From: a virus
Taxonomy: Duplodnaviria; Heunggongvirae; Uroviricota; Caudoviricetes
IMG/VR virus record: IMGVR_UViG_3300038548_000082
Span: 1 to 30,888 of that record
Direction: 5' to 3' (one strand)
Length of the DNA stretch: 30,888 nucleotides
Made by a program: the position numbers and the translations under genes. Under the pieces are notes generated by a model that was not told where the DNA came from, did no database searches, and saw only the letters and a list, made by a program, of their open reading frames with translations. Positions 321 through 4,993 of the stretch are shown here, piece after piece; within the stretch, counting starts at the first letter, position 1, and each line of letters begins with the position of its first letter.

Positions 321-566
321 ATGAGAGTAGTTGTATACACTGCTGATTGGTGTGGACCCTGCAAGAAAGTAAAAGGACTTTTCACTAGAGCTGGGTTTAA
401 ACCTACATATGTAGACGTGGATGAAGAACCAAACGAAGCAGCTAAGATGGGAGTAAGGGGTATCCCAGTAACGATAGTTTATGATGGCGAAAGAGAGGTT
501 CAGCGTTTTGTAGGTGCTATCTCTACTTTGGTAGATAAGCTTAAGGGACTAGGGGTTGAAATTTAA
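321..566 (+). CDS. Thioredoxin/glutaredoxin-like redoxin
   Basis: WCGPC active site, GIP cis-Pro motif, GGAG RBS, stop overlaps the RNR start (TAATG). Confidence 0.9.
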   Translation: MRVVVYTADWCGPCKKVKGLFTRAGFKPTYVDVDEEPNEAAKMGVRGIPVTIVYDGEREVQRFVGAISTLVDKLKGLGVEI

Positions 567-1408
567 TGCAAGAGTTAACAAAGAGTGAAGAGGTAAAACG
601 AGTGGTAGAAGTTAAAGAATATGGACCGAAGTTAAGAATCAGTAAAGAAATTCACGCAATGAAGTATCGAACAGAAGGAGAATCTTTTAAGGAAGGTGTC
701 TCTAGGTTTGCAAGTGCGTTAAAAGATGATGAGGTGCATTATTACAAGATTCGTGACATTCTGTTAGAACAAGCATTCATGGGTGGAGGTAGAACTCAGG
801 CAGCTATTGGAGCACCACGACAGGTAACACCTTTCAATTGTTTCGTTAGTGAGGATATTGAAGATTCTATGGACTCCATTATGGATAGGGCTAAAGACTC
901 TGCACAAACTATGCGAGTTGGTGGTGGGATCGGTTATTGCTTCTCAGCCTTAAGACCAAAAGATGACAGAATCGTATCACTAGATTCCAAGTCCAGTGGT
1001 CCTATTAGCTTTATGAATATCTTTAATGCTGTTTGCCACACTATTTCTAGTGCTGGTCACAGACGTGGTGCTCAGATGGGAGTGTTGCGAATTGATCATC
1101 CAGACATTGAAGAGTTTATTCACGCTAAGCAGAATGAAACAAACCTTAAAGCGTTTAACTTGTCTATTGCCATTACCGATGAGTTTATGGAGAAGGTAAT
1201 TCGAGTTACTGATTCTGGTAAGGATGAATTGTTCAATCTAACTTTTGAAGGAAGAGTTTACAAGCAGGTTAGTGTTAGAAACTTGTGGGAAGAAGTGATG
1301 CGTTCTACTTGGGATTGGGCTGAACCCGGAGTACTGTTCATTGACCGTATGAACCAATTAAACAACTTACAGTACTGTGAGGTCATTAAGGCTACAAACC
1401 CGTGTGGT
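566..1408 (+). CDS. nrdJ: Ribonucleotide reductase (class II, NrdJ-like), exon 1
   Basis: FNCF, GGGIG, RRGAQMG, HPDI, EPGVLFIDR and TNPCG motifs; the reading frame is interrupted right after the Gly codon 1406-1408. Confidence 0.9.
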
Positions 1409-2093
1409 TGACTCAACCTGTTGAGCCTCACGTTAAAAACTCCGTGAATTCAGGGGAAGTCCAGAACGGACAATCCTGAGCCTAGCTTAACCTGCGAAGG
1501 TTTTGAAGGTGCAACGACTAGGATATACCAGCTCTATGAGTTGATGAAATCCGTAGGGATCAAGTGGTCTCGAAGCGCGGAGAACTTCGTAAGAAGTTAT
1601 GATATAGTCTGGACTGCATAGGAATATGTAGAAGTGCAAAGTACATTTCATAGGGAAAATTTATGAGACAATGTACTGACTGTAAACTTCATCTACCTAG
1701 TAAAGATTTTGCTTGGAGAGGTGGAGCGAGAAAAGGATTGCAAGCAACATGTAAACCTTGTTCTCTAGAACGATTAAGAAAACACAGAGCCTACACAAGA
1801 AAATTAGTAGGTAGATGGAAAATGTGGAAAGGTTGTAATGCTTGTGGGTTTAAAGCTAGGCATTCGTGTCAATTAGATTTAGATCACAGGGATACCTCAA
1901 CCAAATCAAGTAAAGCTAATGGTAGGGCTTTTGAACCTTCTTGGAGTCTGAAAAGAATCAAAGAGGAGCTTTCAAAGTGTGATGTTCTTTGTAAGAATTG
2001 TCATGCTTTAAAAACCTACATAAATAAAGATTATTTGAAAACTTAAACGTACTTTGCACTGGCAATGAGTAACGACCATTGTTGAACATAACG
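1409..2093 (+). mobile_element. Group I intron (subgroup IA2), 685 nt, with HNH ORF in the P9.1 loop
   Basis: Exon 1 ends in U1408 and the intron ends in G2093 (GAACATAACG); removal restores NPCG-EQPL. P1: exon GTGTGGT with IGS GCCTCAC 1425-1431 (U.G at splice site). P3 CTCCGTG/CGCGGAG; P/Q AATTCAGGGG/AATCCTGAG; P7 GACTA 1516-1520 / TAGTC 1605-1609; P7.1 and P7.2 present; P8 AACTTC-GTAA-GAAGTT; P9 CTGCATA-GGAA-TATGTAG; perfect 12-bp stem 1633-1644/2049-2060 enclosing the ORF. Confidence 0.93.
1663..2046 (+). CDS. Intron-encoded HNH homing endonuclease
   Basis: N-terminal CxxC...CxxC zinc ribbon; C-terminal CxxC...LDLDHRD...CDVLCKNCH His-Me finger. Confidence 0.85.
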   Translation: MRQCTDCKLHLPSKDFAWRGGARKGLQATCKPCSLERLRKHRAYTRKLVGRWKMWKGCNACGFKARHSCQLDLDHRDTSTKSSKANGRAFEPSWSLKRIKEELSKCDVLCKNCHALKTYINKDYLKT

Positions 2094-3020
2094 GAACAGC
2101 CCTTGCCCGCTGGTGGTGCTTGTTTGTTAGGCAGCTGGAACTTGGTCAAGTATATCTTCACTGATTCTGATGGAAACCGTTTCTTCGGTATGGAGCAGTT
2201 TAAGGCAGACATCCCTCATATTGTAAGGGCTATGGATAACATTCATGATATGGCTATTTTCCCCCTACCAATTCAAGCGGAAGAAAGCCGTTTAAAGCGT
2301 AGAATGGGTTTAGGCTTGACAGGTGTTGCTAACGCTGGGGAATCCTTAGGGTTTACCTACGGTTCTCCTGAGTTCCTTGAATGGTATGAAGAGGTGTTGC
2401 AAATCTATACCAATGAGACGTATAGTGCTTCCTCCGACCTAGCATTGGAAAAGGGTTCTTTCCCTCTCTTTGATGCTGATAAGTATTGTGAGAGTGTTTT
2501 TATTAAGACTCTTCCTACTTGGTTGCAAGAGAAGATTAGAACTCAAGGTATTCGTAATAGCCACTTGCTAAGTATGGCACCAACTGGTACAATCAGTCTA
2601 ACAGCTGATAACATTAGTGGTGGAATTGAGCCAGTGTTTAGTCATTACTATGATCGAACAATCAAAACCTATGAAGGGGAGAAAGTTGAACGGGTAACTG
2701 ACTACGCTTATGGTACTTGGGGAGTTAAAGGTAAGACTGCTAATGAGTGTACTGCTAAAGAACACCTTGATGTACTTGCTCTTTCTACCCATTACGTAGA
2801 CTCAGCAGTCTCTAAGACTATCAACGTATCACCAGATATGCCTTGGGATGAATTTAAAAGTATCTACATCGATGCATTTAAACTTGGTTGTAAAGGATGT
2901 ACCACCTTTAACCTTGGTGGTAAACGTTTTGGAATCATGAATGAAGTTAAGGAAGACGAACCGGAAGAAGCTAAGGCTTGTTACATTGATTTGCAGACTG
3001 GTCAAAAAGAATGTAGTTAA
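2094..3020 (+). CDS. nrdJ: Ribonucleotide reductase (class II, NrdJ-like), exon 2; spliced product 589 aa
   Basis: EQPL, GACLLGS, RRMGLG, APTGTISL, SGGIEPVF, VDSAVSKT; KGCTTF instead of the class I KTLYY tyrosine pair; C-terminal Cys pair (CY...ECS); no nrdB downstream. Confidence 0.88.
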   Translation, partial: EQPLPAGGACLLGSWNLVKYIFTDSDGNRFFGMEQFKADIPHIVRAMDNIHDMAIFPLPIQAEESRLKRRMGLGLTGVANAGESLGFTYGSPEFLEWYEEVLQIYTNETYSASSDLALEKGSFPLFDADKYCESVFIKTLPTWLQEKIRTQGIRNSHLLSMAPTGTISLTADNISGGIEPVFSHYYDRTIKTYEGEKVERVTDYAYGTWGVKGKTANECTAKEHLDVLALSTHYVDSAVSKTINVSPDMPWDEFKSIYIDAFKLGCKGCTTFNLGGKRFGIMNEVKEDEPEEAKACYIDLQTGQKECS

Positions 3021-3082: not shown

Positions 3083-3757
3083 ATGTTAGATCCAACAATG
3101 TTAGTACCAGCAGCATTCGGTTTTGTGGGTGTGTTGTTATGTGGTGTTATGGACCGTTTGCGTGGTGATAAGAAGACTATCATTAGCCGATTATTTGAGA
3201 AGGTCTTCCTAGGGGTATTAGTCGGAGCGTTAGCAGGCTTATCTTGGTGGGGTATAGCAACCTTTGTACCTTTCTTTGCAATCGCTATGTCAATCTCTTG
3301 GAGCGTCATGGGCAGCTACCTATCAGGAAGTCAACTTCAATGGGGACGATTAGAATGGTGGCAGGGTAATCCTGAGAAATTGAATGCTAAGATTCCATTC
3401 TTAAAAATTAACGAATACAATCCGTGGAGTATGTATTTGATACTAGCTGGCCCTTGGACTTCAGTATTAATTAGGGCAGGTCTGTCTTTCTTAGCTATCA
3501 TCCCTGTGGCGTTTTGTCCAACAGTGGGTGCAGTTGCAGGAGTAGGTTTAGCAGGAGTAGTGTCAGGTTCTTTCTTACTCTCCCTTTGGGTAGTTAAGAA
3601 GTACTTCAAAGCTGATAGTAAGTTTTGGTTACTAGTTAACACGCTTAACTTCGGAGAGCGTCAAGAGGTACGTGCTTGGGGTACTACAGAGATAGTCCGA
3701 GGTATGATGATGGGTGCTGGTGCAATCTTGATTTATTTATTCTTAAAAAGTTATTGA
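3083..3757 (+). CDS. Hypothetical multi-pass membrane protein
   Basis: 224 aa, several hydrophobic segments, AGGAG RBS. Confidence 0.75.
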   Translation: MLDPTMLVPAAFGFVGVLLCGVMDRLRGDKKTIISRLFEKVFLGVLVGALAGLSWWGIATFVPFFAIAMSISWSVMGSYLSGSQLQWGRLEWWQGNPEKLNAKIPFLKINEYNPWSMYLILAGPWTSVLIRAGLSFLAIIPVAFCPTVGAVAGVGLAGVVSGSFLLSLWVVKKYFKADSKFWLLVNTLNFGERQEVRAWGTTEIVRGMMMGAGAILIYLFLKSY

Positions 3758-3782
3758 CACACTCTAGGGGCTATGTAATAAT
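3754..3782 (+). promoter_or_regulatory. Probable sigma70-type promoter (upstream of ORF 3815 and the RNA genes)
   Basis: TTGACA-17 nt-AATAAT (imperfect -10), followed at the conserved offset by AAGTTAAAC. Confidence 0.55.
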
Positions 3783-3814
3783 AGCCCCAAGTTAAACAAA
3801 GAGGGAGATCAATT

Positions 3815-4126
3815 ATGTTGGAATCAGATTTTGAAGAGGTACAATTCTTACTGAAGTTGAAGAAGAAGTTAACCGCGCAAGCAAAGAAATGCAGAGAGCT
3901 TAAAACTGTTTATGACAACCATGTTGATTCTGGTGGTTACGAGAACTTCAACAAAGGTTGTTCAAACTACATCCACACCAATTATGATGGTAGTGGTAGT
4001 GGTGTAGATCTATCAGGTTGTTACCTTGGTGAACAAGTAGCATCAGCTGTTGAACAGATTATCTACCTTCAGTTGGAAGACGTAAGCACACGATTAAAAG
4101 CTTTGAAAGTTACTGAAGAAGAATAG
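3815..4126 (+). CDS. Hypothetical protein
   Basis: 103 aa ORF with GAGGGAG RBS. Confidence 0.7.
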   Translation: MLESDFEEVQFLLKLKKKLTAQAKKCRELKTVYDNHVDSGGYENFNKGCSNYIHTNYDGSGSGVDLSGCYLGEQVASAVEQIIYLQLEDVSTRLKALKVTEEE

Positions 4127-4137
4127 AATTTGTGTTG

Positions 4138-4408
4138 TGTACATGAGGCCAGATAAGAAGCACTGGCAGGAAGCTCCTTGCATGAAGCGCAAGTGTGGAG
4201 TGGCGAACAAAGGCTAGGGAAGTCACGACTCCTGCACAAACGTGACTGAAATAGGTGTCCACCGGGCTACTCTACCCGGCTGTAAGGGCCTACTCAGTGA
4301 CCCCCGTGGAGTAAGGGGACGATTGTTGGATATCAGGGTTGATTAGTGTAGGGAGGTAGGTCGATGCCCTTGACACGTGGCCCAGAACTCTGGTATCCTC
4401 ATTAGACA
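4138..4408 (+). ncRNA. Candidate structured non-coding RNA (~270 nt), family unassigned
   Basis: No listed ORF; ends pair (ATGAGG 4143-48/CCTCAT 4397-4402; CCAGA 4149-53/TCTGG 4389-93); internal hairpins CTTGC/GCAAG, AGTCACG/CGTGACT, CCGGG/CCCGG, TACTC/GAGTA, GGGCC/GGCCC; ends 2 nt before tRNA-Arg. Confidence 0.6.
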
Positions 4409-4410
4409 TT

Positions 4411-4487
4411 GCCCTCATAGCTCAGTGGACTAGAGCATCGGCCTTCTAAGCCGTGTGTCGTAGGTTCGAATCCTACTGGGGGTGCCA
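4411..4487 (+). tRNA. tRNA-Arg (anticodon TCT)
   Basis: Cloverleaf: GCCCTCA/TGGGGGT acceptor, TAGCTCAGTGG D arm, loop CT-TCT-AA, GTAGG-TTCGAAT-CCTAC T arm, encoded CCA. Confidence 0.95.
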
Positions 4488-4493
4488 AATTAA

Positions 4494-4570
4494 GCAGGTG
4501 TGGCAGAGTTGGTTATGCAGTTGACTGCAAATCTTCATAGATATGGGTTCGAGTCCCGTCACCTGCTCCA
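4494..4570 (+). tRNA. tRNA-Cys (anticodon GCA), weak anticodon stem
   Basis: GCAGGTG/CACCTGC acceptor, U73 discriminator, loop CT-GCA-AA, T loop TTCGAGT, encoded CCA. Confidence 0.88.
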
Positions 4571-4591
4571 AATTAGTTTAACGGAGGATTT

Positions 4592-4993
4592 ATGGAACTG
4601 TTAGAAAGAATCAAAGAAGATCGAACAGCAGCACGGAAAGGTACTAGTGCTGTAGATAAAATACGTGCCACACTCCTAACTACGTTAGTTGGTGAAGCTG
4701 AGACAGCCCTTAAAGGTAAACAGGCTAAGAAATTTGATATGTTGGCTCTTGTTAAAAAGTTCCAGAGTAATTGTCATGAAACTCTTGCCATTAAATTTGA
4801 TGAAAAGATTCATATAGAGATTTGTCTTCTTCAAGAATATATTCCAGAACAGTTGACAGAGATAGAACTTTGTGAGAAACTAGTTGAATCGGGTGCAAGC
4901 AACATAGGTCAGTTCATGGGATACCTTAATAAGAGTTATAAAGGTTTGTTCGATGGGAAGCTTGCAGCTAAAGTTGCTAAAACTAACTTGTAA
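4592..4993 (+). CDS. GatB/YqeY-domain protein
   Basis: LLERIKEDRTAARK...IRATLLTTL...LQEYIPEQL...IGQFMGYL pattern typical of YqeY; follows tRNAs. Confidence 0.7.
   Translation: MELLERIKEDRTAARKGTSAVDKIRATLLTTLVGEAETALKGKQAKKFDMLALVKKFQSNCHETLAIKFDEKIHIEICLLQEYIPEQLTEIELCEKLVESGASNIGQFMGYLNKSYKGLFDGKLAAKVAKTNL

Follow-up and report, generated by a model that had tools for sequence, protein, structure and literature searches.

Does the DNA in front of a pair of phage tRNA genes encode an RNA of its own, and if so, how much of that DNA belongs to it? The stretch analyzed here (the window) covers the opening 30.9 kb of a virus record of 94,888 bp that carries direct terminal repeats. Only one public run contains the window sequence; it is a DNA run of a marine sediment metagenome, probably the source sample, and no RNA run with the sequence was listed. 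An earlier note had read positions 4138–4408 as a single RNA of ~270 nt, with its two ends paired, an H-type pseudoknot, crossing long-range pairs and perhaps ribozyme activity. Near this locus, all genes are carried on the + strand, and its features are as follows.

566–3020, + strand: ribonucleotide reductase large-subunit gene, interrupted by a group I intron bearing an HNH gene.
3083–3757, + strand: ORF without relatives.
3754–3782, + strand: putative sigma-70-like promoter, TTGACA-17-AATAAT with TG (a match of 11/12 in a consensus scan).
3815–4126, + strand: upstream ORF of 103 aa, whose sole match is itself and whose stop codon opens the gap.
4127–4325, + strand: 5′ portion of the gap, not conserved (a spacer, a 3′ UTR or an RNA particular to this lineage).
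4326–4400, + strand: conserved structured RNA module (77.6 bits, E 6e-18 with cmsearch and covariance model R1; own fold z −2.83).
4399–4410, + strand: 12-nt linker from module to tRNA, read from the sequence.
4411–4487, + strand: tRNA-Arg(UCU) (ARAGORN; Rfam 64.8 bits).
4494–4570, + strand: tRNA-Cys(GCA) (ARAGORN; Rfam 51.2 bits).

The gap (4127–4410, 284 nt) runs from the stop codon of ORF 3815–4126 to tRNA-Arg and contains no credible ORF, in agreement with the earlier note; it had been said to stop 2 nt before the tRNA, but it reaches 4410 and the tRNA adjoins it. Searches for relatives of both upstream ORFs (3083–3757 and 3815–4126) found none. The tRNA pair is followed on the + strand by a YqeY-like gene, an Rnl2-type RNA ligase, a dNMP kinase and a primase/helicase. 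The promoter match at 3754–3782 could drive ORF 3815–4126, the gap and the tRNAs as a single transcript. The interval 3700–4700 contained no terminator-like site, and together with the promoter match this suggests co-transcription. A further sigma-70-like match (TTGACA-18-TATCCT with TG, 4370–4399) lies inside the module of the window and would initiate transcription a few bases upstream of tRNA-Arg. Its TTGACA is missing from the other module copies, and it may be a chance match or a lineage-specific tRNA promoter; if it is the actual promoter of the tRNAs, they and the module could be transcribed separately.

Farther upstream, the halves of the ribonucleotide reductase gene occupy 566–1411 and 2079–3020. 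The group I intron between them was matched by Rfam with 66 bits at 1359–1631 and contains the HNH endonuclease ORF at 1663–2046; its core is ~77% identical to an intron core in the Vibrio phages 249E41-1 and 193E37-1.

We then compared the fold energy of the gap with that of dinucleotide shuffles. The minimum free energy of 4127–4410 was equal to that of the shuffles (z −0.11; minus strand z −0.62), and the first 199 nt (4127–4325) gave a z of −0.08 when folded alone. Meanwhile, 4326–4400 alone gave a z of −2.83, a fold reached by only 1 of 200 shuffles. Only 4326–4400 stands out within the gap as a real folded RNA. An Rfam scan had been proposed to recognize a known family; Rfam 15 showed no match inside the gap, either at the gathering threshold or at E ≤ 10. 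The 5′ part, 4127–4325, likewise had no Rfam match at E ≤ 10, and it showed no similarity to phage records or to any locus that we fetched.

When the gap was compared with phage records by blastn, only 4340–4386 was matched, in unannotated DNA of the E. coli Chaseviridae phages TH29 and 4HA13. The helices flanking this match differ in sequence among these phages while their complementarity is kept. Further copies were collected by pattern scans on the shared loop sequences, followed by more blastn. The module is carried by other Chaseviridae, by Kuravirus and Suseptimavirus (Gordonclarkvirinae; 50 records), by the N4-like Schitoviridae genera Gamaleyavirus, Kaypoctavirus and Efbeekayvirus, by Ackermannviridae infecting Salmonella, Klebsiella, Serratia and Dickeya (419 records matched a module-containing query), and by uncultured phages of 164–171 kb. 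Exact-loop scans of prokaryote genomes and metagenomes yielded one extra copy of the type found in locus L011, the remainder being chance matches in high-GC coding DNA, and no copy was found in 5,426 complete E. coli genomes or in plasmids. Pattern matches in L013, L016, L020 and L021 were discarded as they lie inside an 892-aa ORF. The phages nearest to that of the window by the YqeY-like gene lack the module and differ in synteny; the absence fits a mobile cassette. A literature search found no description of the module RNA. The family is missing from Rfam 15; a catalogue of ~10,000 (10,006) candidate structured RNAs of viruses, built from IMG/VR (PMC10690425), could contain the motif.

The window carries one member of this family, and it is the only copy in the 94.9-kb genome. 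It is a two-helix hairpin: a 13-bp closing helix, an asymmetric internal loop (GAUUA opposite GUGGCCCAG), an inner helix of ~8 bp and an apical loop of 13 nt. Its parts in the window are as follows.

4328–4340, + strand: 5′ strand of the closing helix, GGAUAUCAGGGUU, 13 bp, pairing with 4386–4398 (13/13 pairs covary in the family).
4341–4345, + strand: 5′ side of the internal loop, GAUUA, with AUUA invariant (alignments A1–A3).
4346–4353, + strand: 5′ strand of the inner helix, GUGU.GGG, pairing with 4367–4369 and 4373–4376 (8/8 family pairs covary).
4354–4366, + strand: apical loop AGGUAGGUCGAUG, 13 nt; family consensus RGGWWGGYCGAUR, with GG..GG.CGAU invariant in 31 distinct copies.
4367–4376, + strand: 3′ strand of the inner helix, consisting of CCC, a UUG bulge and ACAC.
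4377–4385, + strand: 3′ side of the internal loop, GUGGCCCAG, with GUGGCCC invariant in 31 distinct copies.
4386–4398, + strand: 3′ strand of the closing helix, AACUCUGGUAUCC.

Covariance model R1 was built from 16 copies, and the window copy was included in this training set. Copies recovered afterwards by a looser pattern, and thus independent of the training, scored 48–85 bits against R1. In alignment A2, 92.8% of the cells in the helices were paired, and changes on both sides were observed in 21/21 pairs; none of 500 column shuffles reached the observed values, and sliding the partners by 1–3 columns left 33–52% paired. RNAalifold (17 copies) and a structure drawn by hand (16 copies) gave the same fold. 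The proposed check of covariation among homologues was therefore positive for all 21 pairs of the module; for 4127–4325, no relatives were found. Across the 31 distinct copies, AUUA, GG..GG.CGAU and GUGGCCC do not vary, and the 27 loop nucleotides are near-invariant across unrelated phage families, whereas the stems differ wholly between lineages. Invariant loops on variable stems are typical of RNAs recognized in three dimensions. In the helices of the family, G-U pairs outnumber A-C oppositions 56 to 8, indicating that the module is a transcript read from the tRNA-bearing strand.

Several other identities were considered for the module and rejected. A tmRNA was not called by ARAGORN, and the only tag-like frame, GCG AAC AAA GGC UAG, has 4 codons and no hydrophobic end. 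RNase P RNA, which is marked by a conserved P4 core, had no Rfam match at E ≤ 10. The 3′ core of a group I intron, hinted at by the HNH gene at 4HA13, had no Rfam support, and other copies have no endonuclease neighbor. A small ORF with its own ribosome-binding site, GGAGGU-N6-AUG in the loop, was set aside: certain copies have AUA in place of the AUG, and the window and TH29 do not keep the same reading frame (alignment A1). A loop-to-tail pseudoknot, GGYCG with UGGCC, is compatible with the U/C variation, but only G4377 would be available to cross the 8-bp helix. A CsrA-type GGA loop was rejected because the window and many other copies have no GGA.

Nearly every copy of the module shares the strand of the tRNA genes and lies within or next to a tRNA array. 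In the window, its last paired base is 12 nt upstream of tRNA-Arg, with tRNA-Cys next; in Kuttervirus it lies 5–6 nt upstream of tRNA-Tyr (5 nt in L113). It is flanked by two tRNA-Leu genes in L011 and L025, and stands between tRNA-Asp and tRNA-Pro in L070 and cp20. It directly follows tRNA-Leu in KP8 and a tRNA 3′ end in L103 and G17, and comes after tRNA-Asn in L095, L098 and L111. Its distance from the tRNA varies from 3 to ~180 nt, and certain copies have no tRNA neighbor. Upstream of the module, other phages have tRNAs or unrelated sequence or modules. The neighboring proteins are unrelated among the three carriers that we compared (window, SR02 and 4HA13), and no shared neighbor protein that might be a partner was found in them. 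The order of the module relative to other non-tRNA modules varies among related phages. These order changes and the unrelated neighbor proteins suggest that the module behaves as an independent cassette, in the manner of a tRNA gene.

Other RNA elements were observed beside the module. In the E. coli phages TH29 and 4HA13 (Chaseviridae) and PhAPEC7 (N4-like), there is an RNA without annotation whose tag frame, GCA AAY GAU ... UAA, resembles that of tmRNA (L002 ~1560–1860, L001 ~727–1017 and L086 ~600–760). These RNAs encode ANDSEMRVAA* or ANEEAYLMVA* and have weak Rfam matches to permuted, alpha and beta tmRNA, whereas ARAGORN calls no tmRNA. At E ≤ 5, Rfam matched only tRNAs and these weak tmRNA-like elements beside the module in four homologous loci. 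TH29 and 4HA13 do not have the tag RNA and the module in the same order, in keeping with independent cassettes, and in 4HA13 an HNH endonuclease gene lies between the two. Another HNH-type endonuclease ORF (L009, 4321–4827) lies between tRNA-Leu and tRNA-Met of a phage related to that of the window through the YqeY-like gene.

Kuttervirus-type phages have more conserved non-tRNA segments, between tRNA-Asn and the module (L113, 107–283) or downstream of the module (L098), in an order that varies by genus. One of these segments opens with AAAUUGAAGUAG and closes on CUACUUCA, and L113 215–274 also matches T5-like Salmonella phages, beside tRNA-Lys. In the uncultured 164–171 kb phages (L018 ~630–400, minus strand; L011 1476–1740), tRNA-Leu(UAA) genes lie on both sides of the module, and in one such phage the anticodon loops of both hold group I intron-like insertions, one with an ORF. 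Kuravirus and Gamaleyavirus are members of different families; upstream of the module they have in common ~120–180 nt of non-coding sequence (L038 ~1000–1185; L086 ~380–500), including the hairpin GGGAGG-AUUCGUCC-CCUCCC. This stretch may be a second exchanged RNA module.

What might such an RNA do? On balance, we favor the reading, with somewhat better than even confidence, that 4326–4400 is a copy of a mobile small-RNA cassette that moves among phage tRNA genes and gives rise to a released, stable RNA whose loops act in trans. Its family membership, secondary structure, strand and association with tRNA arrays are shown by the results above, whereas we infer its co-transcription, processing, stability and trans action, and the type of its partner, as follows. 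The module is probably transcribed together with ORF 3815–4126 and the two tRNAs. RNase P cleaves tRNA 5′ ends; a cut at 4410/4411, the 5′ end of tRNA-Arg, together with upstream nucleases would free the module and leave the 12-nt linker as a short 3′ tail. The proposal that 5′ processing of the tRNA sets the 3′ side of the RNA would thus stand, but the product would be an RNA of ~75 nt and not a ~270-nt unit. The 13-bp closing helix, close in length to the 12-bp stack of acceptor and T arms in a tRNA, would protect both RNA ends, and the product would be a stable RNA of ~75–90 nt. The tRNA-like ACCA after this helix in Ackermannviridae copies speaks for this reading; the window copy has no CCA there, which speaks against it. 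The GAUUA/GUGGCCCAG internal loop and the RGGWWGGYCGAUR apical loop would form the working surface to which a conserved partner is bound in trans; this partner would most likely be a component of host translation or tRNA metabolism. The upstream stretch, 4127–4325, would be a non-conserved spacer or 3′ UTR.

The strongest competitor, which we still regard as unlikely, holds that the module is a cis element, a long irregular hairpin that forms or protects the 3′ ends of tRNA operons by intrinsic termination, by blocking exonucleases or by offering a site to RNase III/E, and has no function in trans. In Kuravirus and the N4-like phages, the closing helix is lengthened to ~20 bp and followed by UUUU, and in the N4-like phages a second small terminator hairpin comes after the UUUU; these ends could equally mean a cis-acting 3′-end element. 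The module is also always at the boundary between RNA cassettes, and its combined helices are near the length of an RNase III substrate. However, terminators and exonuclease blocks do not need 27 near-invariant loop nucleotides on freely changing stems. In addition, several copies have a tRNA gene on either side, a position in which termination would do harm. The window copy has neither CCA nor a U tract after the stem, which is followed by UCAUUAGACAUU, and no intrinsic terminator was called in 3700–4700; we therefore rejected a terminator for this copy.

A bolder and rather unlikely reading takes the module as a tRNA mimic without a cloverleaf, which would mature like a tRNA and whose loops would engage a conserved host factor of tRNA metabolism, translation or tRNA-directed defense, or else as a new catalytic or ligand-binding class. 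The mimic is suggested by the closing helix, whose 13 bp approximate the 12 bp of the stacked acceptor and T arms of a tRNA, and by the Ackermannviridae, where 9 of 10 distinct copies have ACCA after the 13-bp stem, as at a tRNA 3′ end. Such an RNA could be a decoy for a tRNA-cleaving or tRNA-modifying defense enzyme. If true, this would explain why unrelated virulent phages have repeatedly exchanged the module with their tRNA genes.

We consider it improbable that the module represents a new class of self-cleaving ribozyme, or of aptamer for a small molecule, that for example aids the cutting of tRNA arrays, as HDV-like theta ribozymes do beside phage tRNAs. Catalytic and ligand-binding RNAs are marked by invariant loops on freely covarying stems, and in several lineages the module lies a few nucleotides from tRNA ends. 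Nevertheless, neither the window (E ≤ 10) nor four homologous loci (E ≤ 5) matched an Rfam ribozyme or riboswitch. The variable tRNA distance, and the copies that lack a tRNA neighbor, also speak against it. The loop-to-tail pseudoknot is implausible geometrically, judging from G4377 as the lone nucleotide across the 8-bp helix. The ribozyme candidacy raised in the earlier note found no backing, as nothing indicates ribozyme activity and no Rfam ribozyme was matched.

We give little credence to the reading of the whole of 4138–4408 as one ~270-nt RNA. Its listed complements (ATGAGG/CCTCAT, CCAGA/TCTGG, TACTC/GAGTA, CCCC/GGGG, GTGTC/GACAC and GGGCC/GGCCC) are all present; the stretch has no ORF and no Rfam match. 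Its poor fit to tRNA, tmRNA and canonical RNase P was also borne out, as ARAGORN called no tmRNA, Rfam gave no tmRNA match at E ≤ 10 in 4000–4650, and the gap had no Rfam match to tRNA or RNase P. However, we estimate that chance alone would give ~35 complementary 5-mer pairs in a stretch of 270 nt. The unit folds no better than its shuffles, its first 199 nt have no relatives, and the module measures ~75 nt. Three of the pairings compete with the covarying helices: TCTGG (4389–4393) and CCT (4397–4399, of CCTCAT 4397–4402) of the terminal helix are used by these helices, AGGG (4335–4338) of the hairpin 4335–4370 belongs to the closing helix, and ACAC (4373–4376) of GTGTC/GACAC belongs to the inner helix. 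Since the covarying helices occupy the same bases, we rejected all three.

The remaining pairings of the ~270-nt unit found no support either. For GGGCC (4286–4290) with GGCCC (4379–4383), the GGCCC is part of the invariant internal loop and the GGGCC has no counterpart in other phages. The H-type pseudoknot of TACTC/GAGTA and CCCC/GGGG lies in the part without relatives, and a single nucleotide spanning its 5-bp stem would be sterically unlikely. The hairpins at 4177–4193, 4221–4247 and 4262–4279 fall within the non-conserved 4127–4325, which folds like its shuffles. Upstream pairing partners are not conserved, as the sequence upstream of the module differs in other phages. What survives is an unassigned structured non-coding RNA before the tRNA pair, but as a two-helix hairpin of ~75 nt that is neither paired end to end nor multiply pseudoknotted.

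Finally, it is very improbable that conservation acts at the DNA level, with the invariant blocks as a site for homing endonucleases or for recombination in cassette exchange: homing endonuclease genes are plentiful in the tRNA regions of these phages, with an HNH gene adjoining the 4HA13 module and another inside the L009 tRNA array, and the module moves among unrelated phages, but compensation in 21/21 pairs and the strand-specific G-U excess (56 to 8) point to RNA, and all copies with nearby tRNA genes lie on the tRNA strand.

A mobile cassette that yields a stable RNA with trans-acting loops is thus the reading that we prefer. The family has a compact fold proven by covariation, conserved loops and hundreds of sequenced, easily grown host phages; culturable carriers include coliphages and phages of Salmonella, Klebsiella and Dickeya, of the N4-like, phiEco32-like, Vi1-like and Chaseviridae groups. 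Deleting the RNA, or pulling it down, in laboratory strains can therefore put its function to a direct test. The window copy takes the family past the enterobacterial phages into a marine-sediment phage unrelated to those carriers, which argues for a partner broadly conserved among bacteria.

We compared the module with known RNAs of similar setting. A tag-frame RNA adjoins the module in TH29, 4HA13 and PhAPEC7, whereas the window has neither a tag frame nor a tRNA-like domain and, unlike tmRNA, the module has no T-arm. HDV-like theta ribozymes are structured non-tRNA RNAs directly beside the tRNA genes of tailed phages. The module resembles them as a structured RNA beside phage tRNA genes, but it has no nested double pseudoknot, no Rfam match to HDV-like ribozymes and no fixed junction with a tRNA end. 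The antisense RNAs C4 of P1/P7 and CI of P4 are small, have paired ends, are excised from a longer transcript by RNase P and act through exposed loops. The module shares with them a small size in a phage and paired ends, as well as release by RNase P and exposed loops, the last two only as proposed for the module. In contrast to C4, it had no Rfam C4 match and no complementary targets were found; it differs from both C4 and CI in that its carriers are virulent phages, and the searches of E. coli genomes and plasmids gave no copy.

The rnaC (species 1) and rnaD (species 2) of T4 are stable RNAs freed by the tRNA-processing machinery. According to the annotation, they are, like the module, non-tRNA RNAs arranged head to tail with phage tRNAs on the same strand. 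The discovery of such stable non-tRNA RNAs in the tRNA clusters of phages dates back to T4 species 1 and 2, and to our knowledge none has an assigned function. They are not homologous to the module: the best hit of R1 on the T4 tRNA region, with filters off, scored 9.6 bits (E 0.46). They are also longer (119–139 nt, compared with ~75 nt for the module family), and rnaC has a T-arm-like GGUUCGAAUCC hairpin at its 3′ end that the module does not have. T4 rnaC and rnaD are thus the closest known kind of RNA, sharing with the module a genomic logic without homology.
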